Shown here: positions 4,647-57,512 of the stretch, one piece after another
Layout of the letters: every line of letters starts with the position of its first letter
How positions within the stretch are numbered: the stretch's first letter is position 1
Origin: a virus
Taxonomy: Duplodnaviria > Caudoviricetes
Direction: 5' to 3' (one strand)
IMG/VR virus record: IMGVR_UViG_3300044816_000047
Location: 1-61,835 of that record
Length of the DNA: 61,835 nucleotides
Position numbers and translations under genes: made by a program
The notes under the pieces: generated by a model
The model's database searches: none
The model's input: the letters and a program-made list of their open reading frames with translations, nothing else
What the model was told of the DNA's origin: nothing

Positions 4647-7353
4647 GGCCGCATTGACCTTTGACGAATTCGGAACGACGCCCGGTGGCGTTCCCGTCGG
4701 TGCGAACGGCCTGCCGCGCGTCGAAATCAGCGGCGCAGAGCCGAAGGAAGAAAAAGCCAACCCCAAAAACGTTTTGACGTTCGATGAATTTAATCCAAGC
4801 CGTTGGGGCGATAAAGCCATTAAAACCGCGAAAGATATCGGGAAATCTGCGCTTTCGGGCATTGACAAAGGCATCAGCGGACTGGCGGGGCTCCCTGCTG
4901 ATACCGCTCTGAACGTGGACAGCTTTGTAAGAAAGGGGAAGTCCTGGGCGCAGGGCCGCCCCATTGAGGATATCAACGAAGAAGAAGAGCGCAACGGCAT
5001 CGTTTCTCGCAAGAAGGTCGAAGACTTTCTTCAGCCTTATACGTCGAAGTCTCTTCATGAAAATTCGGGCTTAGCGCACACGCCCGAAACCGAAGCCGGG
5101 AAATGGGTTGAGGCCGGCACCGAGTTCGTGCCGAGCGTGGTGTTGCCGGCGGCGGCCGCCGGCCGCGTCGCGCGCGCGGGCGAAATAATCGGAATGGGTG
5201 TGGCCCCCGGCGTGGCATCGGAAGCGGCAGGTCGGGCAACCGAGGGATCGGCGCTTGAACCGTGGGCCCGCGGCGCTGCCGCGCTTGTCACCGGCGGCGC
5301 TGGCGCAATCGCCTCGGCGCCGAGCACCGCCGGTCGAGCCGTCTCGCGGGCCACGCATGGCGCAACCCCGGCCCAAATCGACGAGGCCGAGCAGCTTTTC
5401 CAGTCCGCCCAGCAGCAGGGCATGCCGCTGACCCGTGCGGAAGCGGTCCAGCACGTCACGAACGGCGGGACGAATCTGGGGAACCTGCAACGGGTCGTCG
5501 AGGGCTCCGGTGAACTGCGGCCAATGATGTCGCAGCGGCCCGGGCAGGTTGACGCCGCGGCGCGCCGGGAATTCGACAATCTGGCGCCGGCGTCGCCGAG
5601 TCCGTCGGCAATTGGTGAGGATGTCAGTGTCGCGGCGCGCGGTGCTGTCGCCGAAACGCCGCAGGGCCGGGCGTTGTCGGATTCGGTATATCAGGCTGGA
5701 CCACGGGTTTCGCCTGCCGATGCGGGATCCACGATCCAATCGGAACTTGCTCGCGTTGGCGATAAGCGAGAGTCGATGCGGTCGGCGCTTGCTGATCATG
5801 ACTATTCGGCGGCCCGCAACGCTCCGGCTACAATCCCGGTCAACGGCGGGCATCGCGTTACGGATGTCACCAAGCATTATCTTGACCGACCTGACATCCC
5901 AATCATATTGGATCCAGCCGAGCGGTCGGCTGCTCAGAAGAACTGGTTTAGCGAAAACAATCCAACGTCGCGCACGGCGATCGTTGGAGAGCGCCCGACG
6001 GAGTTTGCTCAAGTCGATGCGAGTTCAGTCGTTGCTCATATTGATAGTGCGTTGGAAAGTGCCAAGGGGGCAGTTAGGCAAGGTCTAACGGCGGCGCGAT
6101 CGGCCTTGATGAATTCAGAGGGCGCGGTCGACCATACCGTGCAGGGCCTTCACAATTCGAGAAAAGCCATCGACGACTTGATCACCCAGGCCAAAAACGC
6201 TGGTGCCAAGAATACTGTCACGGAACTCATGGGGGCCAAGAGCGTGCTGGACACCGCTCTTGAAAAGGTCCCCGCCTATGGCGACGCCGTGCGAAATTTC
6301 AAAGCCGCCAGCGAGCCCTTGTCCTCATTTGAAAGCGGTCGCGCTCCGGGCCGTATCGTTGAGCGCGATCAGTTCAACCAGCGTTTTGAAATGACGCCCG
6401 ACAAGGTGGCGGATACGATCCAGCGCGGGGGACGCTCGGCCGCCCGTGACTTCAATCAAGTTGCGACACCGGCTGCCCGCGAGGCTTTTGAGCAACATTT
6501 AATTACACAGACATTGGAGAAGGCGCGCGGCCAAGGCGGCGAGATTTCCGCGGAATCCATCCGCAAAGCAATACGCAAGAACGAAGACGTGATCGGTGAA
6601 TTTCCGGGAGTGCGCGATCGCCTTGATGCTGTTGCGCGCGCCCGCGATGCGCTTGAGCCTGTTTTGGCGACGCCCATCGGCAAGTTGGCTCAACGCGACC
6701 CGACGACAAAGAAAGCCATCAACGTGCTTTTCCCGGAAAATCCGCTGCCGAATAGTCAGCGGGAGGTGGGTAACGCGGTTCGGGACGTGGCTCGGCGCAA
6801 CCGGCCGGCCGCGACCGCTTTGGTGCGCGCGCATACTGAGATGGTTTTCAACGAGGCCACCAGTCGCCTTCAAACCGGTGCCAACGAGTTCGCTGGCGCC
6901 GGGTTTGCGGCCGCGCTTCGCGGTAATAAGCAGCAGGCGGCGAACCTTGAAGCGGCAATCACCGGTTTGCAGGGTCGACAGACCTTTGAAGGATTTGACC
7001 GGTTCTTGGACGTGCTGGAAGCGCAAGGCGCGCGCCAGCGCATCGGATCCCAGACTGCGTTCAATCAGGAAGTTCAACAGTCCTTGAAGCAGGGCGGCAC
7101 GGTCGGGGAGGCGCTGTCAGCCGTCGCGTCTGGCGGTGTGAAGCTCCCGGCCAAAATCACCCAGCGGATCGAACAATGGCGGATGGGCGGCAACGTCCGC
7201 GAGATTGCTGACATTCTCACGAACCCGCAGGGAGCGGACCTGTTCCGGCGGCTCGCGACCGCGCCGCCGGATTCGGCGCTCGCCGCTCGGATCGTTGGAC
7301 GGCTGACTTATTTGGCCGGACGCAGCTCGCAAGACGGCAAAGGTGAGAAGTGA
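4645..7353 (+). CDS. Large internal virion / DNA ejection protein
   Basis: 902 aa, Ala/Gly-rich helical, repeated LTFDEF near the N-terminus; last large gene of the ejection module. Confidence 0.65.
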   Translation: MAALTFDEFGTTPGGVPVGANGLPRVEISGAEPKEEKANPKNVLTFDEFNPSRWGDKAIKTAKDIGKSALSGIDKGISGLAGLPADTALNVDSFVRKGKSWAQGRPIEDINEEEERNGIVSRKKVEDFLQPYTSKSLHENSGLAHTPETEAGKWVEAGTEFVPSVVLPAAAAGRVARAGEIIGMGVAPGVASEAAGRATEGSALEPWARGAAALVTGGAGAIASAPSTAGRAVSRATHGATPAQIDEAEQLFQSAQQQGMPLTRAEAVQHVTNGGTNLGNLQRVVEGSGELRPMMSQRPGQVDAAARREFDNLAPASPSPSAIGEDVSVAARGAVAETPQGRALSDSVYQAGPRVSPADAGSTIQSELARVGDKRESMRSALADHDYSAARNAPATIPVNGGHRVTDVTKHYLDRPDIPIILDPAERSAAQKNWFSENNPTSRTAIVGERPTEFAQVDASSVVAHIDSALESAKGAVRQGLTAARSALMNSEGAVDHTVQGLHNSRKAIDDLITQAKNAGAKNTVTELMGAKSVLDTALEKVPAYGDAVRNFKAASEPLSSFESGRAPGRIVERDQFNQRFEMTPDKVADTIQRGGRSAARDFNQVATPAAREAFEQHLITQTLEKARGQGGEISAESIRKAIRKNEDVIGEFPGVRDRLDAVARARDALEPVLATPIGKLAQRDPTTKKAINVLFPENPLPNSQREVGNAVRDVARRNRPAATALVRAHTEMVFNEATSRLQTGANEFAGAGFAAALRGNKQQAANLEAAITGLQGRQTFEGFDRFLDVLEAQGARQRIGSQTAFNQEVQQSLKQGGTVGEALSAVASGGVKLPAKITQRIEQWRMGGNVREIADILTNPQGADLFRRLATAPPDSALAARIVGRLTYLAGRSSQDGKGEK

Positions 7354-8444
7354 GCAAAGAACTGGGACTGCGCGATCATCTGGCGGCGGCCGGCATCTAT
7401 CACGCGGCGCTGCACGAAGGGGATATGACCCGCGCGGAAGCAATGATGCTGAACGGACACGACCATATTTCGGCCCTCACGCGCGCGGCGATCCTCAACT
7501 CGCTAGAGCAGGGCGACCTCACGCTGGCTGAAATCGAAACCATCTTCGGCGAAGGAGTCCTACACCATGTTTACGACCAGCCAGTATCAGGAAGCAGCGA
7601 AGCTGCTGAAAACGAGAGCGTCGAAGAGCAAGGACCAGATGCAGAAGACGGCGGCGCTGAAGAAGGCGACGACGTTCGCGGCGTTGGCGAAGATCACGAC
7701 GAAGGCGACGCCGGACCCGTCGCCGACGCCGAAAGTGAAGGTGTCGAATCCGCCGAAGACGAAGTGGGAGCTGCCGCCAAGTCCAAAATAGAGAGGCTAA
7801 CCAATCTGATCGATCTTGTCGTCAAGGAACTGCGCGAGATCGTCAGCGAGCCTGCCGAAGAGAAGGTCGAGAATGGAGACGGCAGTCGTTCCGCCCCGGT
7901 CGTAGTTGTGTCCTCCGATGACATTGCCCGCGCGGCCGAGCGGATCGACGGTGAAGCGACGGAGGCCCAAAGGGTCGCTGGAAATTATCGAAAGGCGCAT
8001 GTGCAATTCGACGGTTTTGATCTCACTATTGAAACGCCCAGAGGCGGCATCCGGACCGGCAAGCGCGAAGACGGCAGCGAGTGGAAGGTTAAAATGCCCG
8101 CCGCCTACGGATACCTGAAGCGCACGGCCGGCGCCGACGATGAACAGGTTGATATCTTCCTCGTCGACCACGCCTCGCCGGGTCGGGTTTTTGCGATCGA
8201 CCAAATCGACCCCGAGACTGGTATGTTCGACGAACACAAAATAGTTCTAGGCGCGCGATCGGAGAGAGAAGCACGCCATATCTACGGGCGGGCCTTCTCT
8301 GATGGATCTGGACCGACGCGCATCGGCACACTGACGCAAATGACGTCTGACGAATTGCGGGAATGGCTACAGTCGGATGGCGGCAAAAAGCCGATTGGAG
8401 ATTTGCCGCAGCCCTACGAGGCTAGACGTCAGTCAAATCTTTGA
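7350..8444 (+). CDS. Acidic protein with C-terminal inorganic-pyrophosphatase-like domain of phage polyvalent (DarB-type) proteins
   Basis: TEAQRVAGNYRKAHV...LTIETPRG..RTG..W...MPAAYGY..RTAGADDEQVDIF...IDQ...FDEHKIVLG; D/E-rich middle. Confidence 0.7.
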   Translation: MSKELGLRDHLAAAGIYHAALHEGDMTRAEAMMLNGHDHISALTRAAILNSLEQGDLTLAEIETIFGEGVLHHVYDQPVSGSSEAAENESVEEQGPDAEDGGAEEGDDVRGVGEDHDEGDAGPVADAESEGVESAEDEVGAAAKSKIERLTNLIDLVVKELREIVSEPAEEKVENGDGSRSAPVVVVSSDDIARAAERIDGEATEAQRVAGNYRKAHVQFDGFDLTIETPRGGIRTGKREDGSEWKVKMPAAYGYLKRTAGADDEQVDIFLVDHASPGRVFAIDQIDPETGMFDEHKIVLGARSEREARHIYGRAFSDGSGPTRIGTLTQMTSDELREWLQSDGGKKPIGDLPQPYEARRQSNL

Positions 8445-17342: not shown

Positions 17343-17447
17343 AATAAGTCGCGGCCCTCGTCAGGGGTGAAGATATGGGTTAAGAAGCCCTTATTTTACG
17401 GGCACTTCTTGCATTTGGTTTAGTCGGCTGTGTCAGATTTGTGCCAG
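17221..17447. other. Candidate attP with integrase arm-type repeats
   Basis: Paired YGTGYCA(G/C) repeats 11 bp apart at 17221/17232 and 17429/17440, an inverted copy at 17274-17281, AT-richer centre, at the integrase 3' end. Confidence 0.5.
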
Positions 17448-18384
17448 AAATCAGATCCGGCAGCGTCTTGTCCTCGTTAGCGTGTCCGTAGGTCTCCAGA
17501 ACGTGTCGGGCGCTCTTCCAGCCGCCCAGCTTGGCAATGGTCACAACGTCCACCCCGCGGTGCAAGAGTGCCGTAGCGAAGCCGTGGCGGCAGCTATGGA
17601 AGGTCAGGCGATCAATCTTGGCCCGTCGAACAACTGCATCCCAGACGCGGTAGCAGTTCGAGCGAGAGGTATAGAGGAAGACCGGACGATCCTTGATCTT
17701 CTCGATGTTCGCCAGCGCGACGACGAGGGGCTGCGGAAGATGCGCCCGCCGCTCGGCGCCGATCTTGGTCTGTCGGATCAGGACAGTCTTGGCCTTGAAG
17801 TCGATATCCTCCCAGCGGACCCGTAGCGCTTCAGTCACGCGGGCGCCTGTCAGGAACATGAACAAGGCCAGTCCGCCAAGGTGCGGTGTCGAGTGCTTGG
17901 CGAAGGCTTGGCACCATTCGAGGGTTGCAGGCAGTTTGCTTTTGGTTTCGACCTTGAACCGCTTCACGCGGATGCGCGGGCACATCTCGGATTCCGCGGC
18001 GTGGTTGATGATTGCCTGCATCGGGACAATGGCTTGTCGATTGCGGGTGGCCGCTGCCCCGTTCGGGTAAAGCGTCCGGGCCGCCGTCTGGATAGCGCCT
18101 GGGGTAATGTCCCGCACCAAAGTATCCTTCCAGTAGTCCTCTAACCGCTCCAGAAACCGCATCGGCTTCTTGGCAGCGCGGTACGCAATCGACGCCTGCG
18201 CGAACGTCAGGACCGCCGCGGGGCCATTGACACGACGTTTCCACGCTTTGTCCGCAATCTGGGCAGCGATTTCTGCGGCTCTTTCTTTGACCGCTGTGCC
18301 CGTAGAGCCGCGTAATCGCCCGACACCGGGAATTGTGCCCCGGTAGTGGAAGACGCCACCTCGCTTGTAGATTTTAAGGGACAT
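17380..18384 (-). CDS. int: Tyrosine integrase
   Basis: TGARVTEAL (R), K, FHSCRHGFAT (HxxR), LGGW, TYGH catalytic set. Confidence 0.95.
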   Translation of the reverse strand: MSLKIYKRGGVFHYRGTIPGVGRLRGSTGTAVKERAAEIAAQIADKAWKRRVNGPAAVLTFAQASIAYRAAKKPMRFLERLEDYWKDTLVRDITPGAIQTAARTLYPNGAAATRNRQAIVPMQAIINHAAESEMCPRIRVKRFKVETKSKLPATLEWCQAFAKHSTPHLGGLALFMFLTGARVTEALRVRWEDIDFKAKTVLIRQTKIGAERRAHLPQPLVVALANIEKIKDRPVFLYTSRSNCYRVWDAVVRRAKIDRLTFHSCRHGFATALLHRGVDVVTIAKLGGWKSARHVLETYGHANEDKTLPDLISGTNLTQPTKPNARSARKIRAS

Positions 18385-18639: not shown

Positions 18640-21600
18640 TCACTTCTCCACAGTCGTCCCGTCCTGCGAAGAAGCAGAACGTGCCTTCAGCCATTTTTCG
18701 AGCGCTTTAAGGCCAGCTATGTTGACGGCGTAGATCGCGTCTTGGCCGCCGTTTATGAATCTGCGAAAGTCCCAATATGGAGAGGCTTCAAAATTCCTCG
18801 CCTGCGGGCCGCCGGCCGTTGTGCAGTAGTAATTTCGGTAAGCGGTCTTCAATGAGCCCTTGGGCCTTCCGATGGCATGGTGCATGTCGTCGAAATCTTC
18901 ATCAGTTAGGGTCACGGCTTTCCTCCCACAGGAATGCCTACCCTGCGCTGCACGATGTAGGTTTTGCCGTCTGGTCGTTGAAGGTCGCAGCGATCGGTAT
19001 CCTTGATCTGGTCCTCATTGCCGGTGTACTCGAGATCCTTCTGCTTGGGATCGACGCCACGGATATCCCATTGCATCGCGATCTTCTTCGGCAGTTTGAT
19101 CTCGCACTTGCCGTTGGCACTGTCATAATCTCGGTCGCGCACAAAAAACTTGCATGAGCCGCATGTATTCGGCTCCGCGCTGCAACCGACCGCCAATGTT
19201 ATTTCACTTGGCATCGGCGCTCTCCTGGGGTGACGGAGGGGCTGCATTTAGCGCCTTCAGTACATCGCTCAACTCCCTACACTCAACGCCGTCTACTAAA
19301 TAGGTGGTCTTGTGGATTTGCTTGACCTTGCGAGAGTGACCATCACCACTCTTGATGACCGCGAGACGAGGATAAGTCGTGCTCTGGTAATGATTCTCAT
19401 AGGCACCGTGCGCCATGTCGAGACACAGCGTTCCGCGAAATTTGGCGTTAGCCTTGAGGTCCGCCAACGTGATTGGCTCACTCGCTGTCACAGGAGATGA
19501 CGGGTTAGCGGTATCGGTCATAGTGATCCTCCTCGGCGCGGCCGCGGGCGTCGGCCTCCTGTTCGCGCATTGCGTATTGCGTATTGAGCCTGTCGCGAGC
19601 ACTCTCTTGCGCCACAATGCTCAATGTCGCCGTGGTAATGTTCATAAACGCCAAGTTCTTCACCGCACCAAAAACAATGCTGCATCCGCTTCATGTGGCA
19701 TTCCCTCCCTAGCTCGCAAAAAAGACAAAAGCTAAAAGCCCTACCAACCAACTATTGTTGTCGGTCCAGATCGCCATCGGGATTGCGCCGACGAGGGCGA
19801 TAAGCATTACGGTCATGAACAGCCAGACAGATATTTTGGCCCACAGGTCGGTCATGACTTGCTCCCGTCAGGCCCATACCTGCGCAGCGGGCTTTTGATC
19901 GTGATCGGGCGCCGAGTCGGCCGGTCTGATTTGGGCCGCCGCACGCGCTTGCGCTTGACCATTTCGCGGGGGTAGAGCTTCACGGCTTGCGCTCCATCGC
20001 ATCTGCGATACGTTCAACAGCCGTCACAAAGCGATCTACCATATCCAATGTCATGGTCATTTCGGTGCGCTGCCGCATCATCAAGTCCATATCTTTCAAC
20101 TTGTCGCGCTCAGCTTTGCGGGCTTCGTATTGCTCTTTCGGGGTCATGTCGCACCGTCGCTTTTGGGGGAGGAGAATGGCGATGCCTTCATCGGCTCGAC
20201 TTCGACCAAGGTCAGTACGCACCAATTCCAATCATTGCGCTGGCGGATAGCAATCGCTACGGGCTGGTTTTTGTGCCATAGCGTCGTGATGTTGCTGTCT
20301 GTCACGTTCTGGCAAGTGATCTCCGACCCCGGCTTTCCTTTGAGACCGAGCTTGTTAACAATCGCTTCCATCCACATCTGGCCGATGCTCGCCACTTCTA
20401 TTTCGTCCATAGCCATCATTTGCTGGACTTTACTCATGGGCGTTCTGCCGATGTGATCGCGAGGGCCGGCAAGTCAGCGATTGGATGCCAGTGTGTTGCC
20501 GTGTGGCCGCACCATCGCAACATCTCGCTCTCGTCAAAGCCGTCCATGCGTTTGTCCAGCCAACGGGCTTTGCCATCGGTGCAGACCACTACGTCATCAA
20601 GGGCTGGGATTTCCGTCTTCAAGTCGATCCAGCCCAAGCCCTCCGCTGCGGCCTTGGCATATTGGGTGCGTCCTGTGTCCATGTCAGCGATGTTGTCCAT
20701 CGCGATCCATGCGAGTTCGGTTCGATCTTCGATGTTCATGCCGCAGGCTCCCCGTCACCCTTAACAACTGGCAGGGCCTCAAACCGACCGTCTTCAAATT
20801 CTTCCTCCCAACGGACCCAGTATTTGCCATCGTCGCAGCGGTAAACGATCATCGTAAAGCCTTCGATCACGTCACGATCTGCTTGCAATTCGGCTCGGCA
20901 AATTTCGGTGTAGGTTGATCCGCGCTTCTTGTGCCGCCAACGACGGGGCAGTTGCTTGTCCTCGACCGGAACGCGAGCGTCCTCGTATTCGTTGACCGTT
21001 ACCGGGCCAGTCTCAATCATCTCGCTTGCCCCTTGGGAGAGGGCGCGAACTTCGGTGGCAATTCGAACTTGGTCGAAAATTTGCAAGGCCACAGCAAGCC
21101 CGCTCGCGCGGCCAGCCTGCCAACTTCGATCACTCCATCCGCTGGTCGTTTTCGCAATTTCTCCCCATTTGCCGTTTTCTTCGTTGTGCGCCGCCGCCAA
21201 CTTCGCGCGGATATCGTCGATCTCCTGCTGCAACGCTTGAAACGTCGGGCAAACCCCAACCGACAGCGCGTCTTCATGGCAGCACTCGGATTCGATCTTC
21301 TCCCGCGCCCCATCCTGTAGCGCGATGCCTGCGGATTCAAAGTCGCAAATCATCGCCGCGTAGTTCCGTCGCGACCATCCGCCCTCAGTGTAATTCGGGC
21401 CGGTTGCTGGCGGCTCTTTCGGCCAAGCCTGTAGCGGTGCGGCGAGGGCGGCCTCCAGCGCGAAGCGAGCGGAATCCCGGAAGGCGTTAGCATTAGGCTT
21501 TGGAACATCTTCCCATTGTGGCGGCGTGCCGTCCCAATGTTGCCCGCGCTCATACATAGCCCGCGCGCCAGCCTCGATCTGCGCAGGGGTCGGCTTTAAT

Positions 21601-41794: not shown

Positions 41795-43576
41795 ATGGCG
41801 ATCGAACTTAAAGGTTCGCGGTATTTAACGAAGGACAATGAACCGCTCGCCGAGTTCATCACTACCCGCCTTCGCTACCTTGATTTCGTTGAGACGCTGG
41901 ACTTCTACGCGAGCATCGAGCCTGCCCTCGACGACAAGGGGCGGGCGCTGCTCAATGTGAATGACCGCTTCTACCTTCTGACCGTCACGCTGCACCGGCA
42001 GGATGCTTGGCATCCTTGGTTGTTCGAGCGCTGCCGGGAGGTCGAGGCGGCGCCGGACGACTATCTCGATCTGTGGGCGCGTGGCCACTACAAAAGTTCC
42101 ATCGGCACATTCGCCGGCATCATCCAGGAAGTGCTGATCGATCCCGAGATCACGATCGCTATCCTGTCGGGCACCAACAAGGTCGCGCTGCCGTTTCTGG
42201 CGCAGATCCAGCAAGAATTCGAGAACAACGACGACCTGAAGCGGATCCACGCTGACGTGCTGTGGCAGGAGCCGCGCAAGGAGGCCCCGCTTTGGGCGCG
42301 CGACAAGGGCATCACGGTCAAGCGCCACGGCAACCCGAAGGAAGCCACCATCGAGGCGTTCGGCGTCATCGACGGCATGCGGACCGGCAAGCATTACGAT
42401 CTGCTCGACTTCGACGACCTGATCGACGAGTCGATGGTCGACAACCCCGATATCGTCAAGAAGGTGACGCAGCGGTGGGAGTTGGCCGGCAATCTTGGGC
42501 GCCACACCAAGAAGACGCGGAAGTGGCACTGGGGCACGCGCTATTCGTATGCTGACACCTATGGCGTGATCCTCGATCGGGCCATCTTGCAGGAGCGCCG
42601 CTATCCGGCGACCGAAGACGGCACGTTGAAAGGCGTTCCGGTTCTGATGCGGCCGGAAGAGTGGGAGAAGGTCAAGCTGGCGCAGCGGTCGACCGTCGCA
42701 GCCCAGATGCTCCTTAACCCGCTCGCCGGCAACGAGAGCACGTTCACGACGCTGACGTTCAAGCATTACGACGTCATCCCGGCGATCATGAACGTCTACA
42801 TCATGATCGACCCATCGAAGGGCAAGTCGAAGCGCTCCGATCGCACCGGCATTGCGGTGATCGGGGTCGACGTCGGCGGCAACAAGTATCTGCTCGATGG
42901 CTACTGCCACCGCATGAACCTGTCGCGCCGATGGGAACTGATCAAGCTGTTGAAGAAGAAATGGTCTGACCACACCGGCGTCGCGCTGGTTCGTGTCGGC
43001 TATGAGCAATACGGCATGCAGGTCGACCTTGAAGTGCTCAAGGAGACCATGGACCGCGAAAAGAATCACTTCGAGATCGAGGAACTGAATACCACGCGGG
43101 ACGGCACGCACTCCAAGAACGATCGCATCTCGCGATTGGAGCCGGACTTCAACCGCGGTGCCTTCTACTTGCCGGCCGTGATTTACCATCCGGAGTACGG
43201 CGGTGGCCTAGCCAACCAAGCCCTGTGGGATGTTTGGACGGAAGAAGATGTCAAGCGGATGGAAGCCGGAAGCCAAAAGGACATCCCGGCCGTCGGCACC
43301 ATCGTCTATCGGCCCATGCAGGGCCCGACCAAGCAGCAGCGTTACTGCCAGGCCACGATGCAGACCTTCCGTATTGTCACCGCACTCAAGCGGATCAATG
43401 AGGACGGCGATATGTACGATCTCACGCGCGCCTTCATCGAGGAGGCCCGCCTTCACCCCTTCGCGCCGCACGACGATCTGATCGATGCGGTTTCGCGCGT
43501 TTACGATATGGAGCCAAAGATACCGATGCCGTTCGAATCCGTCCGCGCCGATCCCCAAACCTACGCGGATTCATAG
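41795..43576 (+). CDS. terL: Terminase large subunit
   Basis: WARGHYKS (Walker A variant), LLDFDDL (Walker B), GTRY, IMIDPS..SDRT, HDDLIDA nuclease motifs. Confidence 0.92.
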   Translation: MAIELKGSRYLTKDNEPLAEFITTRLRYLDFVETLDFYASIEPALDDKGRALLNVNDRFYLLTVTLHRQDAWHPWLFERCREVEAAPDDYLDLWARGHYKSSIGTFAGIIQEVLIDPEITIAILSGTNKVALPFLAQIQQEFENNDDLKRIHADVLWQEPRKEAPLWARDKGITVKRHGNPKEATIEAFGVIDGMRTGKHYDLLDFDDLIDESMVDNPDIVKKVTQRWELAGNLGRHTKKTRKWHWGTRYSYADTYGVILDRAILQERRYPATEDGTLKGVPVLMRPEEWEKVKLAQRSTVAAQMLLNPLAGNESTFTTLTFKHYDVIPAIMNVYIMIDPSKGKSKRSDRTGIAVIGVDVGGNKYLLDGYCHRMNLSRRWELIKLLKKKWSDHTGVALVRVGYEQYGMQVDLEVLKETMDREKNHFEIEELNTTRDGTHSKNDRISRLEPDFNRGAFYLPAVIYHPEYGGGLANQALWDVWTEEDVKRMEAGSQKDIPAVGTIVYRPMQGPTKQQRYCQATMQTFRIVTALKRINEDGDMYDLTRAFIEEARLHPFAPHDDLIDAVSRVYDMEPKIPMPFESVRADPQTYADS

Positions 43577-46795: not shown

Positions 46796-47832
46796 ATGGC
46801 GCAGACGACGCTTTCGGGCCCTCTCAACAACGCAGTGCCGTTCAATACCGGCGATGGCGGAGAAAACGGCCAGCATCCCAAAGAGATTATCGATGCTCTA
46901 AATACGATGCTGACCGAGCTATATGCGAGCGACACCGCAGCAGCACTGGCGTTGACGACCCAATCCGCCATCAAATTTGTTAATGTTACGATCACTACGG
47001 CGCAGTTGAAGGCATTGAACGCCACGCCGCAGACAATTCTGGCGGCGCCCGGCGCCAATCTGGCCAATGTCATCGATAGCATCGTCGCCTACAAGGCCGC
47101 CGGCACTGCCTATGCGGGCATTGCCGGCGGCGAGGACCTGTCCGTCAAATACACGGACGCATCTGGCCTTGAAGTGCTGGAGATCGAAACCACCGGGTTC
47201 CTCGATCAGACCACGGCGCAGACGCGCTACGCCTCATCCTTTGCCGCGGCGTCGGGCATTTCTTCGATCACGCCGGTTGCGAATGCAGCGATGGTCATGA
47301 TGCTGCTCTCCGGTGAAATCACCACCGGCGACAGCGATCTGAAACTTCGTGTGTACTACCGCACGGTTCCGACCACGCTATGACCACCGACATCTCCGAC
47401 AAGCCGACCACGACGGACGTCAATGTTCTCGATGCGCCGTCCGGATCGAGCGACATGGTGGTGGTGTCTCAATACACGCCGCGGCTCGATGGGCTGTTCG
47501 ATAATTTCAAAGAAGCCGATATGGCGTGTGCGCATTGGCTGGCTGCGATCTTGACAAAAGAATTCTTCGGCTACGAGTGGAAGACCGAGGCAGATCTGTA
47601 TCAGGGCGTGGTGGCGTTTAGCATCCCCGAACTCATGGGTGCCACCATGAAATGCGCGATCAACCTGCGCCGGACCGTTCTGAGCGAGAAACTGGTTCGT
47701 GACCTTGCCGGGGAATTGCTCGAACGCATGGGCCTGCCGCGTGGTCAGGTTGAGATGGCCATGGCCGTCGCCGCTCGCAAACGGCTGCACACCTTTGACT
47801 TTGCCGATGTCGGCAAGAAACGGCCCGCATAG
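46796..47832 (+). CDS. Two hypothetical virion-region proteins (46796-47383; 47380-47832)
   Basis: Coupled ORFs immediately before the portal. Confidence 0.65.
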
Positions 47833-50309
47833 TGCCCAATTTGCGAACGCAACCGTCCGGCGAGGATGGTGTAACCAATCCGCGCGCCGCGTCTGGCGAG
47901 ATCGACGAACTCGAAAATGCCGCTCAGACAGCCACGGAAGGCGACACTGACGCCGACGGTGATGATGAGTTCAACGAGAAGCCGAGCAATGACGAATTCC
48001 TGCAAATGGTGCGGGAAGCCGACCAGCAGGGCCTCTATTACTCCAATCAGGTAAATCGCCGCTCGTGGGAGCGCGTCTATCGCGCATACCACCAGGAGCA
48101 TTTTACCGGGTCGAAATACACGAGCGACGACTACAAGAACCGCTCAAAGCTGTTCATCCCGAAGACCCGCGCGGCAATCGAGAAGGATTTGGCCGCGGTC
48201 GCGGCCTCCCTGTTTGGATCGCTGGATGCCGTCAGTTGCATGCCCGGCAACGAGGGCGACGCGAAGCAGCGCGCATCGGCCTCGGTCCTTCAGGAGCTCG
48301 TGAACTACCGCACCGACGGGTCGCGCGGTAGTCGCGCGGCGATTCCGTGGTTTCACGTCGCGATGGGCGCCCGGCAGACCTCGAAGCTGACCGGCGTGTG
48401 CCTGTCGAAGCAGTCATGGAAACTGGAGCTCAAGCGCGAAGGTTCCGAAACCTTCACCGACGAGGAGGACGGCGAGGAAAAAGAGCGCGACGTTTGGAAG
48501 CCTTGGATCGATCGGCCCGACGTTCAACTGATCCCGCCGGAGAACTACGTCATCGATCCGGCGGCTGACTGGACCAATCCGGCGCAGGATGCGGCGTATA
48601 TCCTGATCAAATGGCCGATGCGGATCGACGAAATCCGCAGGAAGCAGAAGGATCCGCGCAATCCCTGGAAGGCGGTCGACGAGAATATTCTGAAATCGGC
48701 CGGCGAGGGCGCGCGGATGGAAGCCGCGGCGATCCGCCGGGCCCGCGAACAGGGGCTCGACCGCTACGACGAGAGCCAGACCGGGCCAAACTTCGACATC
48801 ATCTGGGTGTGGGAGACGTATCTGAGGACCGCCGGCGAGGACTGGACCTTCATCTCTGTCGGCGACAAGCACATGCTGACGGACCCGAAGCCGGTCTCCG
48901 AGGTGTATCCGGAACAGTTCGGCGAGCGTCCTCTGGCAATGGGCTATGGCGCCTTCGAGGCGTTCCGCATCTTCCCTATGTCGTCGGCCGAAAGCTGGCA
49001 GATGCTCCAGCAGGAGACCAACGATCTCCGTAACTTATCGCTGGATGCCATCAAGCAGAACGTCATGCCGGTCAGCAAGGTGGTCCGCGGCAAGAACGTC
49101 GACCTCGACCAGTTGAAGCGGCGCGGTCAGGGCACATCGATCATGGTGTCCGACAAGGACGACGTGACATGGGAGAAGGTCCCTGACATCTCCGGTAGCG
49201 TCATGCAGATGGCGCAGTCGATGAACGTCGAGTTCGACGACATCGCAGGCCAGCAGAATTACGGCACGGTGCAGGACAACAATCAGCTCGGCAAGACGCT
49301 GGGCGGGCTGAAACTGGCCGCCGGCGCCGCCAATGCGGTCCAAGAGTTCAATATCCGCATCTGGATCGAGACCTGGTGCGAGCGGGTTCTGTCGCAAATC
49401 GTCCGCCTTGAGCAGTATTACGAGTCCGATCCGATCGTCCTTGGCATTGCCGGCGACCGCGCGCAACTGCTCACCAAGTACGGCGTCGACGAAATCGACA
49501 ACGAGTTGTTGGAAAACACGGTCACGATCCGGGTGAACATCGGCCTCGGCGCCGGCGATCCGCAGCAGCGGTTGGCCAAGTTTCAAAGCGCGACGCAAAT
49601 CTTCCTTCCGCTCGCACAAGCGTCGAAGGAATTCCAGAGCGGTGAAAAGTCGATTGATATCGAAGCGATCATGCAGGAAATTTACGGCGGCGCGGGATAT
49701 CGCGACGGCGGCAAGCGCTTCATCAAGACTGGTCCGCCCGCCCCGAACCCGATGCAGCAACCGCAGTTGGATAAACTGATCTCGGAGACCGACAAGAACA
49801 AGGCGCTCGCCAAGAAGGCGATCATCGACGCCATGTCCGGCGCCGCAAAGGTCGGACTGTCGCTCGAAGCGCTCAAGGCGGAAACCGCCGACAACGAGTT
49901 CTGGCAGCATCTCGAACATCTCGACCAAGCTGGACGCGCGCTCGATTTGGGCCACAAGCACGGCCTGGCGATCTCCGCCCCCAAGGCTTTGCCCGGCGCT
50001 GGTGCGGTCCCTCCGGGCCCTGCTCCGGGCGAGGGAGCCGCCCCGCCGTCTGCGCCGAACAACGCTGGCGGCGGGGACGGTCTCATTGCTCCAAACAATG
50101 TCGGAGCAGGGAATGCAGGCGTCTCGCCGGCGGACCTCGGCAGACACGGAATCCCGGCGGCCGACGCCGGCCAGCAGCATTTGCAGGATCAAGCGGCCGA
50201 ACAGCACGCGATCCAGCAGTCTTTGAAGAAGCCGACCAAACGCAAAATCACCATCGCAAAGCGCGGGCCCGACGGTCGCGCCAGCGAATTCCACGTCACA
50301 GAGGAATAG
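47832..50309 (+). CDS. Portal protein
   Basis: 825 aa; RSKLFIPKTR, PENYVIDP, LQQETNDLRN, TLGG motifs of P22/N4-like portals. Confidence 0.85.
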   Translation: MPNLRTQPSGEDGVTNPRAASGEIDELENAAQTATEGDTDADGDDEFNEKPSNDEFLQMVREADQQGLYYSNQVNRRSWERVYRAYHQEHFTGSKYTSDDYKNRSKLFIPKTRAAIEKDLAAVAASLFGSLDAVSCMPGNEGDAKQRASASVLQELVNYRTDGSRGSRAAIPWFHVAMGARQTSKLTGVCLSKQSWKLELKREGSETFTDEEDGEEKERDVWKPWIDRPDVQLIPPENYVIDPAADWTNPAQDAAYILIKWPMRIDEIRRKQKDPRNPWKAVDENILKSAGEGARMEAAAIRRAREQGLDRYDESQTGPNFDIIWVWETYLRTAGEDWTFISVGDKHMLTDPKPVSEVYPEQFGERPLAMGYGAFEAFRIFPMSSAESWQMLQQETNDLRNLSLDAIKQNVMPVSKVVRGKNVDLDQLKRRGQGTSIMVSDKDDVTWEKVPDISGSVMQMAQSMNVEFDDIAGQQNYGTVQDNNQLGKTLGGLKLAAGAANAVQEFNIRIWIETWCERVLSQIVRLEQYYESDPIVLGIAGDRAQLLTKYGVDEIDNELLENTVTIRVNIGLGAGDPQQRLAKFQSATQIFLPLAQASKEFQSGEKSIDIEAIMQEIYGGAGYRDGGKRFIKTGPPAPNPMQQPQLDKLISETDKNKALAKKAIIDAMSGAAKVGLSLEALKAETADNEFWQHLEHLDQAGRALDLGHKHGLAISAPKALPGAGAVPPGPAPGEGAAPPSAPNNAGGGDGLIAPNNVGAGNAGVSPADLGRHGIPAADAGQQHLQDQAAEQHAIQQSLKKPTKRKITIAKRGPDGRASEFHVTEE

Positions 50310-53153: not shown

Positions 53154-54376
53154 CCGTTGTTAACGAGATCACACCGGAGATGGAAGCCGCCGAGCAGGAG
53201 CGGCAGAACGAGATCGACGCGCTGACCGGAGTGGAAGATACGGGGCATGAGCGCTCGCAGGATCAGCAACTCTCCGACGAAGAACCCAATATTCCCGAGC
53301 AGCCCGCGGCAAAGAAGATCCAGCAATCCCCGGCCGATGCCGAGCGCGAGCGGATCGCCAATCGTTTCAAGCGCGGCCCGGAAGACGAGAAGCCGTTCGA
53401 CGGCGACATGACCAACGAGGAGAACCTATACGGCACGTTCGCCCAGCAGGACCTCGAACCCGATCCGGACGCACCGGAGCCGGGCGTGCCCCATGTGCAG
53501 CAGGCCGAAGCGCCAGCGCCAAAAATGGTCACGCTGAAGATTCGCGGCAAAGACGTCACCATGACCGAGGCGGAAGTTCTTGCCCGCGCGGCCAAGGTCG
53601 ACGCTGCCGATTCATACCTCGAAGAAGCTCGCGAGCTTCTGAGCGAGGCTAAACGAGTAAAGGCCGAGCGTGCTGGCCGGGACCCTCAACACCCCGAGGG
53701 GCGATCAAGCACGCAAGACGACGGACAGGATATTGACCCCCTCAGTGATCCACAACACCCCGTGGATGACATCGAGGCTGTGGTTGAAAAAATCCAGTTC
53801 GGCGACCCGAAGGAGGCTGCACGCGATCTCCGGCAAGTCATTGCCACGGAGTCCCAACGGCAGGCTAACGAAGGCCATCTGCAACGGCTGGTCAGTAACG
53901 ACCTCGCTATCGCACAGAAGGCACTCGCCGACTTCACGGCCGCAAACCCTCACATTGCGAATGACCCCGATGCTTCTGTGATGATGGAAAACCGCATCTA
54001 CAGCATCTATCGCGACGAAATCGCAAAGCTGGGGGTCGATGAAGCGAAGATCCCGAAAGACCCGAGATCACTTGCCGATTGGCACCGCTGGTATCGGATT
54101 CATGGGGACAACGTGTCCAAGCCTGCCGATCTGCTTATTCAAGCAGGGAAGCATGTCGAGAGCAGGTTGTTCGCTTCAACCACCAAGCAAGCTGCAAAGC
54201 CAAAGGTCGCCGGCCGCGTCGAAGTCAACGTCGACCGGACCGAACGCCGCGCAGCTATCCCAAATCAACCCACTCGCGCCGTCGCTCCGCGACGCGACGC
54301 CGTAGCAGCGCCCGTTCAAAACCCGCGATCTGCTGCCGTCGCCGAAATGCGGAAGGCACGCGGTCAGTCTGTCTGA
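53150..54376 (+). CDS. Capsid scaffolding protein
   Basis: Acidic, VTLKIRGKD motif, helical, basic C-terminus (MRKARGQ), directly before the capsid gene. Confidence 0.75.
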   Translation: MTVVNEITPEMEAAEQERQNEIDALTGVEDTGHERSQDQQLSDEEPNIPEQPAAKKIQQSPADAERERIANRFKRGPEDEKPFDGDMTNEENLYGTFAQQDLEPDPDAPEPGVPHVQQAEAPAPKMVTLKIRGKDVTMTEAEVLARAAKVDAADSYLEEARELLSEAKRVKAERAGRDPQHPEGRSSTQDDGQDIDPLSDPQHPVDDIEAVVEKIQFGDPKEAARDLRQVIATESQRQANEGHLQRLVSNDLAIAQKALADFTAANPHIANDPDASVMMENRIYSIYRDEIAKLGVDEAKIPKDPRSLADWHRWYRIHGDNVSKPADLLIQAGKHVESRLFASTTKQAAKPKVAGRVEVNVDRTERRAAIPNQPTRAVAPRRDAVAAPVQNPRSAAVAEMRKARGQSV

Positions 54377-54412
54377 TCGCGCTGAGCGCATCACCTCAGA
54401 AGGAATATCACT

Positions 54413-57036
54413 ATGACCGGCCAAGTCTGGGCGGTTGCTACCGAAGGCGGCTATCTCTACAGCGACGAGCTGTCGACCTATCTCCGCAAGCAGGTGCAGC
54501 CCCTCACCAAGTTCCGCCAGTTGTGCGACGCCAAGGACGGCACTGAAAAGGGCCTCAACCGCGGCGATAAGTTCAACTGGAACGTCTATTCGAACGTCGG
54601 CACCCAGGGTCGCCGGCTGTCGGAAAATACGACGATGCCTGAGACCGGCTTCACTGTACTCCAGCATCAGCTTACTGTGAACGAAGCAGGCAACTCGGTT
54701 CATTAAGGGAGCCGCTTCTTTTTTGTGTGTCCTTTATGCTCCAGCCAATGACACGGCCGGCATAAAGTTTCTACGTTCTCATCATCAAATATCCGGCCTC
54801 TGTTTTTCTTGACCGGTTCAATGTGATGAACGTGATGCATCGTTGGATCAGCATCGTTCCACGGAAGACCGCACTTAGTACACTTTCTTCCGTCGCGATC
54901 GAGAATAGCATCTCGAAATTTGCCCCATACTTTGCTTGCGAAGCGACTTCGGCGTCTATGTCCGAATTTGTTTGAGAACTCTACGTGATCGAAAGACGGA
55001 TCAAACCAATCTGGATTTTGATCTTCGCGCCAATTCCAGTGTTCGTTTCCGTCCTGGAATCCCATGCGCTCAAGCGACGGATGATCGCCCTTCTTCTTTC
55101 CTGCATTCCACGCCGGCATTTTGCCGGTTTGAGTTTTGCGGCAATTGGGGTGATGGCCGCGCTTGTATTCTGGAATGAACAGATCACCCCCACCTTTGGG
55201 GTATTTGGCAAAAGCAAGGAATCGCTGACCGCACCCGCACTTGCAGGTTACGGAATAGCGTTCTCCGAACTTAATTTCTGGAATAAGCATATGGCGTTAG
55301 TAGCACGATACACACAGGAAAGCAAGAAAACCGCGTGAAACGGGGAAACTCTCTCTGAGACAATCCCGTAGGAAGCCGCCGAGGGCCTTTGGTTCGGCGG
55401 AACCTCTAACGACTAGGCAGTGAGTCCCAACAATAATCTGCCCACGAGCGCGCGGCGCGAAAGCGAAAAGATAGTCTGACCTCACGGGCGACCGTGAGAA
55501 TGCTGCGGATAAAGAGCCGCAGTGAAGAACAAGTGTCCCTACACCGGCAAGCTCTCTGCCCTCGCCAAGCAGGACGTCATCGCGATCATCGACCAGACCT
55601 TGAAGGACGATGCCCGCAAATACTTCGACATCGAGGCTTACTTGCAGTTCAAGTCGACCCCGCTCCGGTTCGCGCCGGCCTCGGGCAACTCCGCGACTGC
55701 GATCACTCTCGATACCACGGTCCAGTGCACGACCACCAACAACCTCGCGCTGGGCACCGGTCACATCAAGGCGATCGGCGACACCATGAAAGAGCGAAAT
55801 ATTGCTCCGTATATCATGGACGATTACGTTTCGATCTCCCACCCGTCGACGTATCGCGGCTTCAAAAATTCTTTGGAGACGCTTCATCAATACACGGAAA
55901 CCGGCATCGCCCATATTTTTAACGGCGAAATCGGAAGGTACGAGAGTTTCCGCTTCGTCGAGCAGACCTTCATCCCGAAGGGCGGCGCCTATGACTCGAC
56001 CACCTACGATCCGTGGAGCGGCACTGCCGACGCCTGGAACAATGCCCTCTCGTCTTGGGCATTCATGATGGGCGCCGACACCGTGGCCGAAGCGGTCTGC
56101 GTTCCGGAAGAAGTTCGGGCGAAGATCCCCGGCGACTTCGGCCGTTCGCGCGGCATCGCTTGGTACTACCTGGGTAAACAAATCTGCCCCGTCGTCGCGG
56201 AAGCGGCGAATGATAACATCGTGAACTCAGAGGAAGTCCTCGCGGCTTAATGCCGTCGCAAGGATTATTCTGATCCAAGCCTCCTGAAAGGGAGGAAGGA
56301 GCAACGACCATCCCTGAGAGGGGAGTAGGGCCAAGTGGCCCGAAGCGCGATGCACCTGACGGCTAAGACGCCAAGGTGATGATATGGTCTGAACTCACAG
56401 GTAACTGTGAGCAGTTTTGCTTCCTTCTGGAAGTTGGTAATAGACCGTGGCATACTGTAGTCATGGAAAACATCATCTTACAGAGGTTTAACGCCAAGTG
56501 GCGCTTAGACAAAAGGTCTGGTTGCTGGAACTGGACTGCATCGACGGCCGGAAAAGGCTACGGGCAGTTTAGAATTCCCGGCACTCGGAAAAACATCTAT
56601 GCGCACCGATTGTCCTACGAGATACACAAGGGTCCGATCCCGGAAGGGATTTTGGTTCTTCACTCCTGTGATAACCCCCGATGTGTGAACCCCGATCATC
56701 TCTCTCTTGGAGATAGCGGCGACAATCTCAAGGACATGGCAGCGAAGGGACGGCATCTGTTCGGAGAGCTAAACGCGCAAGCGAAGCTCACCGGGCGAAA
56801 AGTTCATGCCATCCACGACGCTGCGGCAAGAGGATCAACGCAAAAGCAAATCGCTGAAAGGTTCGGAGTTGGTCAAATGACCATCTGCCGGATACTTCGC
56901 GGCGAGCGCTGGCGTCACATCTTCGAAGCAAGACGGCGAGAGAAGTAACGCACTCTCGTGAACATGATTGGGATTCGGCATCGTCCACCCGGATGCGACC
57001 AACGCCCGCATCTGCATGTGGGACTCCGCGGCTTGA
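54413..57036 (+). CDS. Major capsid protein (N4 gp56-like), join(54413..54699,55536..56175,56971..57036), 330 aa
   Basis: Splicing restores NEAGNSV-PYTGKL and GIAWYYLG-GFGIVH in one frame (993 nt). Confidence 0.9.
54703..55290 (-). CDS. Intron-encoded HNH endonuclease, antisense to intron 1
   Basis: CKCGCG, AWNAGKK (NUMOD-like), ILDRDGRKCTKCG...HVHHI...NVETLCRPCH..EH. Confidence 0.88.
   Translation of the reverse strand: MLIPEIKFGERYSVTCKCGCGQRFLAFAKYPKGGGDLFIPEYKRGHHPNCRKTQTGKMPAWNAGKKKGDHPSLERMGFQDGNEHWNWREDQNPDWFDPSFDHVEFSNKFGHRRRSRFASKVWGKFRDAILDRDGRKCTKCGLPWNDADPTMHHVHHIEPVKKNRGRIFDDENVETLCRPCHWLEHKGHTKKKRLP
55291..55325 (-). promoter_or_regulatory. Promoter for a leaderless antisense HNH mRNA
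   Basis: TTGCTT-N17-TACTAA with a TG extension, ending 6 nt before ATG 55290; no SD. Confidence 0.55.
56176..56970 (+). ncRNA. Group I intron 2 (795 nt)
   Basis: P1 GGGU/GCCC with U56175-G56186; P10 AAUCU/GGAUU; P3 56217-56223/56346-56352; P7 GACCA 56306/UGGUC 56385; P9 GUAA tetraloop; terminal G56970. Confidence 0.92.
56463..56948 (+). CDS. Intron-encoded HNH homing endonuclease (in the P9 region of intron 2)
   Basis: GCWNWT..GYG..AHRLSYE..VLHSCDNPRCVNPDHL..DN..DM; C-terminal HTH; extended -10 TGgCATACT 6 nt upstream. Confidence 0.9.
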   Translation: MENIILQRFNAKWRLDKRSGCWNWTASTAGKGYGQFRIPGTRKNIYAHRLSYEIHKGPIPEGILVLHSCDNPRCVNPDHLSLGDSGDNLKDMAAKGRHLFGELNAQAKLTGRKVHAIHDAAARGSTQKQIAERFGVGQMTICRILRGERWRHIFEARRREK

Positions 57037-57062
57037 TGCGTATCAATATGTGAGGCGAGCAC

Positions 57063-57512
57063 ATGCCCGCTTCACGTCCAACCGAAATCCGCTTTGCGGA
57101 AAAGTATCGCGTCAACCTGAATACGGGCTGCTGGGATTGGACCGGCTCAAAGTCTCGCGGATATGGATACATCCGCGAGGCGCGAGGCGGGATGCTTCTG
57201 GCCCACAAGTTCTCCTATGAACATCACATTGCTTGCGTTCCGGCGGGTAAAATCGTTCGGCACTCTTGCAACAACAGCGTTTGTGTAAATCCAGATCATC
57301 TTCGGATCGGGACGCATGCAGACAACATGATTGATATGGCGATGGCCGGAACCCGAAAGGGGAAAAGCGGCGAGCGCACGTATCTATCAGATGATCAGCG
57401 GGAACTTGTTGTTGATGATCTTGGTAACGGGAAAACCGTTTCCGAGGTTGCTCGTGCGTATCAGGTCGACCGCAAAACCATCCGCAATATTCGCAACACC
57501 TATTGGGTCTGA
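57063..57512 (+). CDS. Free-standing HNH endonuclease, paralog of the intron 2 enzyme
   Basis: GCWDWT..GYG..AHKFSYE..VRHSCNNSVCVNPDHL..DN..DM; HTH. Confidence 0.9.
   Translation: MPASRPTEIRFAEKYRVNLNTGCWDWTGSKSRGYGYIREARGGMLLAHKFSYEHHIACVPAGKIVRHSCNNSVCVNPDHLRIGTHADNMIDMAMAGTRKGKSGERTYLSDDQRELVVDDLGNGKTVSEVARAYQVDRKTIRNIRNTYWV

Follow-up and report, generated by a model that had tools for sequence, protein, structure and literature searches.

A soil virus genome of 61,835 nucleotides, deposited in IMG/VR as record IMGVR_UViG_3300044816_000047 and analysed here over its whole length (the window), carries a major capsid gene that gene calling fails to return in one piece, and the question raised by this locus is what its scattered parts represent. 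Open reading frame (ORF) calling recovers at this place just a 97-aa frame (54413-54706), ending at the stop codon that an unspliced message would meet, and a 242-aa frame with a GTG start (55522-56250), with weak capsid matches, so that the last 21 codons of the gene are lost. The reading favoured here, to which a probability of about 0.9 is assigned, is that the window is a complete 61.8-kb phage whose major capsid gene, probably of the Phage_capsid_3 / N4 gp56-like family, is split by two mobile group I introns. With splicing predicted from sequence features, the locus is confirmed as a well-supported further case of a phenomenon known in other phages.

Intron-less homologues of 330 aa, 70-88% identical to the window protein, were used to delimit the coding parts with tblastn, and in 7/7 cases the alignment to the window falls into three blocks, with neither loss nor gain of a residue. 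The first block covers aa 1-96 at 54413-54700 (75-85% identity), the second aa 94/97-309 at 55528/55537-56175 (71-87.5%), and the third aa 310-330 (310-328 in one homologue) at 56971-57033 (67-86%), the alignment being continuous across NSV-PYTG and YYLG-GFG in all seven. At the first junction, protein alignment alone would permit a slide of one base; a U directly preceding intron 1 and a G as its last base are obtained only with 54699|55536. At the second junction, only 56175|56971 restores YYLG-GFG. Joining the exons gives 993 nt in one frame, encoding 330 aa with a single stop at its end, and the junction strings AACTCGGT|TCCCTAC and CTGGGT|GGATTCGGC are both found in the window sequence. 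Thus, the original prediction proves exact in its exon lengths (287, 640 and 66 nt) and protein size, and right in placing a stop after 97 codons and in describing a 21-aa last exon invisible to ORF callers, no ORF of at least 30 aa covering exon 3 in its own frame.

The three parts of the gene are under purifying selection. The ratio of nonsynonymous to synonymous differences relative to 42 gap-free homologues (pN/pS, given as uncorrected proportions with synonymous sites near saturation) is 0.28 for exon 1, 0.26 for exon 2 and 0.28 for exon 3. In addition, exon 3, which has no start codon of its own, retains 10/10 of the residues that are invariant there across 28 homologues (G310, F311, G312, H315, D317, N320, R322, W326, D327 and S328). 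Such similar pN/pS values, together with the residues kept in exon 3, therefore indicate that the three exons have evolved as one reading frame. Regarding the identity of the product, with the translation of the middle part as query, 3355 of 3538 candidate proteins matched at E <= 0.001, the 120 best listed matches being mostly of 328-332 aa and up to 88% identical, and source databases give several homologues the name 'N4-gp56 family major capsid protein'. The intron-less homologue P0005 scores 25.3 bits with PF13252 (cut-off 23) and 32 bits with TIGR04387, below its cut-off of 60, and exon 2 of the window alone matches PF13252 weakly (17.1 bits) and the 'major head protein' family phrog_1357 with E 1.3e-5.

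Both intervening sequences display the P3-P9 architecture of group I introns, including P3, P7 and a GNRA-capped P9, and their group I signal is far beyond chance. For intron 2, whose boundaries were taken from the homologue alignment, the Rfam group I model RF00028 gives 58.3 bits (gathering score 50; E 3.1e-12). Its guide AAUCUGCCC (56181-56189) pairs on one side through GCCC with the exon sequence GGGU, including the U56175.G56186 wobble (P1), and on the other through AAUCU (56181-56185) with the start of exon 3, GGAUU at 56971-56975 (P10). Two hairpins, CCCU-GAGA-GGGG and GGGCC-AAGU-GGCCC, lie between P7 and P3' and resemble P7.1 and P7.2. Extra hairpins in this position are typical of subgroup IA, T4 introns included, and Michel and Westhof reportedly defined this subgroup by such additional P7.1/P7.2 helices. 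The fold of intron 2 is also more stable than expected, with a minimum free energy (MFE) z-score of -4.81 and 0/200 shuffles being as stable.

Intron 1 was delimited by combining the homologue alignment, the reading of intron-less loci and the rule that a U precedes, and a G ends, the intron. Its guide contributes GCCG to pairing with exon-1 CGGU, including U54699.G54711 (P1), and AGGGA (54706-54710) to pairing with the exon-2 start UCCCU at 55536-55540 (P10). In the related contig L067, which carries at the same capsid site a homologous core 88% identical to that of the window and likewise an antisense HNH ORF, the guide is ACGGAGCCG (ACGGA) and the 3' exon begins with UCCGU, a compensatory P10 change relative to the window. 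R1, a covariance model trained on 11 related introns taken from other contigs, with the window and L067/L143 left out, finds the intron-1 core at 55329-55539 with 178.6 bits (E 2.5e-66) and detects intron 2 as well (66.8 bits, E 5.6e-24). A third R1 match in the window, at 20024-20125(-) with 8 bits and E 0.11, was treated as noise. The last 207 nt of intron 1 have homologues among the introns of other viral contigs, and from a family alignment of 13 members RNAalifold recovers P3, P4, P5, P6, P6a, a P7.1-like hairpin, P8, P9 and P9.1, with compensatory changes at 31/45 pairs. When the P7 pseudoknot is added, 31/50 pairs show compensatory changes and 97.5% of 643 cells are paired versus 36-38% for slid partners, with 0/500 shuffles reaching this level; P7 itself (GACUA/UAGUC) is invariant in 13/13 members and thus uninformative for covariation. 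The hairpin GGCAG...CUGCC, P7.1-like and the single one between P7 and P3' in this intron, also exhibits compensatory changes in the family, the terminal G falls in a column that is G in 12/13 members, and the MFE structure of the single sequence yields the same helices (z = -2.66). The 5' U-G wobble, terminal G and P10 attributed to both introns by the original prediction can thus be read directly, and its P3, P7 and GNRA-capped P9 are recovered through the Rfam and R1 alignments and the folds; of the Infernal group I models that it proposed as a check, Rfam's recognizes intron 2 and misses intron 1, which is found by R1.

These elements fit together into a splicing route. Each intron folds into a canonical core, from P3 to P9, with a guanosine pocket in P7, and has one internal guide of 9 nt to hold both flanking exons, the end of the upstream one through P1 with its U.G wobble and the beginning of the downstream one through P10. 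Excision of each intron from the late transcript would then take two transesterifications and leave an mRNA for the 330-aa capsid protein.

Comparison with relatives shows that the introns come and go. In a survey of 90 related capsid loci (80 from viral contigs and 10 from genome contigs), 82 are uninterrupted and read through both junction sites, 2 are cut by contig ends and 6 are interrupted (L063, L067, L070, L071, L073 and L220). Rfam or R1 matches cover most of the interruptions, whereas the uninterrupted loci have no R1 match at E <= 0.001. The window, L067 and L070 have the intron at codon 96, and 79 loci read across this site lack it; that at 309/310 occurs in the window and in none of the 51 loci examined there. 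Such presence/absence polymorphism at an identical site in collinear relatives is the mark of a mobile intron. The sequence TCGGT is used for Ser-Val at site 96 in 11/79 intron-less alleles versus 3/3 intron alleles (window, L067 and L070), and the CTGGGTGGATTC of the window at site 309/310 occurs in 0/51 intron-less alleles; such a bias in exon sequence at the intron sites would be expected if P1 and P10 pairing were selected for. For intron 2, the sole hint of a sibling in this position comes from another contig, whose protein P0115 continues into what resembles the start of this intron. Two pattern searches for such siblings gave none: a 20-nt P3-P4 pattern retrieved 28 loci from metagenome contigs, all unrelated on inspection, and a 19-nt pattern had 0 matches in viral contigs.

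Both introns also carry intact endonuclease genes with nuclease domains above the Pfam cut-offs. The one in intron 1 runs antisense, a point absent from the original prediction; it belongs with the HNH endonucleases of phrog_144 (E 2e-14), its last codons overlap the guide sequence, and its product is 37% identical to that of the antisense ORF of L067. The one in intron 2, ending 22 nt before the terminal G56970, combines its HNH_3 domain with PF13384 HTH_23 (E 1.2e-5, 25.4 bits vs 24.6), matches phrog_1872 and phrog_59 (both E 1e-33), and encodes a protein 60% identical to that of the ORF in the L063 capsid intron. A third gene, free-standing and outside the introns, encodes a paralogue of the intron-2 endonuclease (37% identical, E 9e-30). 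As the capsid gene is separated from the next one (orf154) by mostly 18-139 nt in the relatives listed, this gene appears to be an insertion between the two and to form part of the same cluster of mobile elements. A similar gene is observed at the same place in the relatives L038, L061, L066 and L072. The intron-borne HNH proteins are predicted to be active, in which case they would cut intron-less capsid alleles of co-infecting relatives and repair would copy the intron in; such homing would explain the patchy spread of the introns among related phages.

Several points weigh against this reading. (i) The prediction of splicing comes from sequence alone, and the 5 sequencing runs listed for the window sequence include no RNA run, all being DNA (shares 0.05-0.09). 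(ii) Rfam RF00028 has no match to intron 1 at E <= 10, either in the region 54300-57200 or in the core 55291-55545 alone, likely because a 590-nt ORF parts P1 from the core and the core is divergent, and the assignment of intron 1 to group I consequently relies on a purpose-built model and on homology to Rfam-positive relatives. These are the ORF-less relative at L073 4263-4476, seven codons upstream, to which the whole of RF00028 is aligned with 42.4 bits (E 1e-7; gathering score 50), and the L070 intron at the same capsid site, with 59.8 bits. (iii) The stretch from P1 to the core, filled by the ORF, is read by eye as the loop of a weak P2, the stem closing the 590-nt antisense ORF pairing at 6/7 positions in the window; this is the least secure element. 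(iv) The exon part of P1 is just 4 bp in both introns. (v) A promoter scan inside intron 1 gave no sigma-70-like promoter for the antisense ORF. (vi) The genome is a metagenomic assembly, and the viability of this particular phage is uncertain.

Regarding what the introns do for the phage, the alternative that survives best would add a benefit to the homing of mobile introns rather than replace it: the intron endonucleases could act as a competitive weapon that cuts the intron-less capsid gene of a rival, their own allele being immune. Three HNH-family genes clustered in or beside the most conserved late gene and the many intron-less target alleles in related phages are in line with this proposal, and the available part of PMC11620839 reports that the intron endonuclease of phage PhiPA3 contributes to the competition of co-infecting viruses. 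Nonetheless, nothing at this locus separates such a benefit from plain selfish homing, and we consider the weapon rather unlikely. With two intron-borne endonucleases, a free-standing one and abundant intron-less targets, the cluster still offers a compact natural system in which intron mobility, the co-adaptation of guides and exons, and endonuclease-mediated phage competition come together.

Much less probable is that the introns work as a regulatory checkpoint, with capsid output timed or gated by the ribozymes through GTP, Mg2+ or coupling to translation. Structure gives it some ground, since the output must pass two ribozyme reactions, and the P1 hairpin of intron 1 with its run of U resembles a terminator; on the contrary, 82/90 related loci make the same capsid with no intron, so that regulation in these phages manages without one, homing endonuclease genes lie in both introns, and sites and core types vary among relatives, which is the signature of selfish mobility. 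The terminator scan found 6 sites versus 3.6 +/- 2.5 in shuffles, which is not significant, and no regulation-specific sequence feature was found. Thus, the timing or GTP/Mg checkpoint of the original prediction is unsupported, the HNH genes and the presence/absence pattern pointing to selfish mobile elements instead. The terminator-like pattern itself occurs at both introns, as the intron-1 P1 hairpin followed by CTTCTTTTTT (54696-54724, +) and the intron-2 P9 hairpin followed by CAGTTTTGCT (56394-56421, +), and these matches are probably due to chance.

Least probable of the three, and hardly credible, is that the capsid gene is dead or unspliced, as a defective genome, an assembly chimera or a set of separate polypeptides would have it. 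A metagenomic assembly and the separate ORFs of exon 1 (97 aa) and exon 2 (242 aa) would fit this view, but the insertions are delimited to the nucleotide by group I splice features and their removal restores a perfect frame of 330 aa, the start-less exon 3 keeps all its invariant residues with a pN/pS like those of the other exons, homologous introns occupy the same site in the independent contigs L067 and L070, and the record, with its terminal repeats, is rated complete. An intein is ruled out by in-frame stops right after exon 1 and within both insertions, and a group II intron by the lack of any such Rfam match and of a reverse-transcriptase ORF.

Mobile group I introns being the preferred explanation, their positions in the relatives deserve attention. 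Interruptions occur in the vicinity of codon 7 (L067, L073), at codon 89 (L073), at codon 96 (L067, L070) and at 305/306 (L063, L073). Two others hold LAGLIDADG-type ORFs, one at codon 53/54 (L070:1848-2611) and one placed after codon 93 by our own reading (L071:3320-4000), and an insertion of ~690 nt near codons 173-183 (L220:4050-4740) has a weak R1 match of 17.7 bits. In L067:1686-2790 and L073:2886-4000 the capsid start seemingly lies upstream of a further group I intron, as an ATG..TGGGT followed by a P1-like UGGGU/GCCC pairing, with Rfam/R1 matches that stop just ahead of the remaining capsid frame and ambiguous 3' splice sites; on this reading, the capsid gene would contain three introns in L073 and two in L067. 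Altogether, the interruptions in the window and 6 relatives fall at about seven positions (near 7, 53/54, 89, 93, 96, about 173-183, 305/306 and 309/310).

The interrupting elements are related across sites and in a mosaic manner. Close relatives of intron 1 are found at codon 96 (window and L067) and codon 89 (L073), all after CGGU and with the guide GCCG. For the 3' half of intron 2 and its endonuclease, matches are found in introns of L063 and L073 that lie 11 nt farther upstream, after CCUGGU and not CUGGGU. That intron 2 might instead be closest to those sharing its UGGGU/GCCC P1, namely the codon-7 introns of L067/L073, was considered and rejected, the identity being 39-40% to these versus 51-52% to the site-306 introns. 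Between capsid introns, cores, tails and endonuclease genes would have been swapped. We tentatively suggest that the capsid gene of these ~60-65-kb Hyphomicrobiales-linked phages is an intron hot spot in which related introns have moved between nearby non-homologous sites, although this has less than even standing. It is likewise possible, rather than probable, that the pattern reflects ectopic spread inside one viral gene, by reverse splicing directed by a guide sequence of 4-6 nt and subsequent endonuclease homing. This multi-site hot spot, with its staggered and mosaic relatives, is where the added interest of the locus would lie.

As for previously known systems, T4 has group I introns in td, nrdB and nrdD with I-TevI, I-TevII and I-TevIII, and the DNA polymerase gene of SPO1/SP82 contains one with the HNH nickase I-HmuI. 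These resemble the window introns in having homing ORFs in peripheral loops, in being mobile and in their patchy occurrence among relatives, and differ from them in interrupting metabolism or replication genes of large lytic phages and in carrying sense-strand ORFs; both sets are among the introns listed in the introduction of PMC3706429. The Staphylococcus phage Twort is also large and lytic, a myovirus with a Gram-positive host, its orf142 being a gene other than the capsid one. The likeness of Twort orf142 to the window is that several group I introns sit in one phage gene, three according to the citation in the accessible part of PMC6669764, which also cites two introns in late genes of the Lactobacillus phage JCL1032.

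Closer counterparts are found in capsid genes. The temperate mycobacteriophage LittleE (Cluster J) has, in the accessible text of PMC3706429, an intron in its major capsid gene verified by reverse-transcription PCR (RT-PCR), whose type its authors call 'unclear, most likely group I'. As described there, LittleE matches the window in being temperate, in the interrupted gene, in a U ending exon 1 and a G ending the intron, in an opposite-strand endonuclease ORF inside the intron, in the absence of the intron from close relatives and in the free-standing HNH genes nearby. It differs in having one intron and a high-GC Gram-positive host, against two introns with canonical cores in a Hyphomicrobiales-linked phage, and in that splicing was demonstrated there by RT-PCR, whereas for the window it is predicted from sequence. 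The lactococcal phage Tuc2009, whose capsid-gene intron is cited in the same part of PMC3706429, is similar by description as a temperate siphophage whose capsid subunit gene holds a group I intron, and differs in its single intron and low-GC Gram-positive host. The premise of novelty in the original prediction, which places most described phage group I introns in nucleotide/DNA metabolism or terminase genes of large lytic phages, is therefore overstated, the LittleE and Tuc2009 capsid introns having come before (partial text of PMC3706429), and the general picture remains unchanged because spliced capsid introns in temperate phages were already documented. A literature search by title and start of abstract, with few subscription journals covered, gave no paper on group I or capsid-gene introns in Bradyrhizobium-type phages. 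Group I introns with homing endonucleases now appear to reach the structural genes of temperate phages of Bradyrhizobium-like hosts.

The features of the locus and its genomic surroundings are compiled in Table 1.

Table 1. Positions of the capsid exons, introns, endonuclease genes and other phage genes in the window.
Feature	Position	Strand	Length	Details
Capsid exon 1	54413..54699	+	287 nt	aa 1-95 and first two bases of the Val96 codon
Capsid exon 2	55536..56175	+	640 nt	third base of Val96 and aa 97-309
Capsid exon 3	56971..57036	+	66 nt	21 codons and TGA stop
Intron 1, group I	54700..55535	+	836 nt	P1, P2 with antisense ORF in its loop, P3-P9.1, terminal G55535
Intron 1 P1 hairpin	54696..54714	+		guide AGGGAGCCG (54706-54714); read from sequence
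Intron 1 catalytic core	55329..55535	+		P3, P4, P5, P6/P6a, P7 (GACUA/UAGUC), P7.1, P8, P9 (GCGA loop), P9.1, terminal G
Antisense HNH endonuclease ORF in intron-1 P2 loop	54703..55290	-	195 aa	PF01844 E 6.2e-9, 36.3 bits vs 21.4
Intron 2, group I	56176..56970	+	795 nt	P1, P2, P3-P9, ORF downstream of P9, terminal G56970
Intron 2 P1-P9 core	56166..56411	+		RF00028 full model 1-253; GUAA-capped P9
HNH_3 + helix-turn-helix (HTH) endonuclease ORF, 3' part of intron 2	56463..56948	+	161 aa	PF13392 E 8.2e-11, 41.8 bits vs 24.8
Free-standing HNH_3 + HTH endonuclease gene	57063..57512	+		PF13392 E 5e-7, 29.7 bits vs 24.8; 26 nt past the capsid stop
Tyrosine integrase	17380..18384	-		phrog_1 E 5e-37; PF00589 93 bits vs cut-off 27.1
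Large terminase	41795..43576			upstream of the capsid gene
Portal	47832..50309			upstream of the capsid gene

The record, a whole virus genome, spans 61,835 bp and has direct repeats at its termini. Its tyrosine integrase fits the temperate lifestyle assumed by the original prediction, and the alphaproteobacterial host named there is consistent with the intron-less capsid relatives in genome contigs, which come from assemblies of Bradyrhizobium, Xanthobacteraceae, Hyphomicrobium, Rhodoblastus and Methyloceanibacter. These taxa support an alphaproteobacterial host range for the phage group; the genome-contig relatives also include two oddly binned metagenome-assembled genomes.

Consequences for annotation reach beyond the window, as similar shortened 'capsids' of 226-254 aa from other contigs are present in the protein database. 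Eight proteins (P0039, P0055, P0060, P0079, P0090, P0095, P0115 and P0117) are short or oddly extended 'capsids' of 226-301 aa that begin exactly at exon-2-like positions or run into intron-like sequence, pointing to many further capsid genes that are split by introns and wrongly annotated as short proteins. Given such split or short capsid annotations, late genes of soil phage metagenomes need to be annotated with introns in mind.

The intron-1 core itself was also encountered elsewhere. Among the IMG/VR loci L081-L210 the core family is present in many unrelated viral contigs, BLAST of the window core matching 38 of 189 loci compared in all, with two copies in some contigs (L103) and differing flanking exons, so that the family seems to be common across environmental phages and to interrupt non-capsid genes too. 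Its P9.1 loop AUAAAGAG and the closing GCGG/CCGC stem (window 55503-55522; alignment columns 235-250) are near-invariant in 12/13 family members, which otherwise diverge, and are also observed in introns with different 5' cores (L070); a tertiary contact or a site for protein binding may underlie such conservation of a peripheral loop. A motif of 16 nt from this hairpin occurs in 109 viral stretches; BLAST links only about a third of these (38 loci, some of them sharing a contig) to the core of intron 1, and the remaining ones look like chance or motif-only sharing.

Away from the capsid locus, a 364-aa protein encoded at 7350-8444(+) resembles, in its C-terminal half, very large virion-associated proteins (phrog_37402, E 2e-49), and has further matches to 'minor head protein', 'DarB-like antirestriction' and 'endolysin' families.

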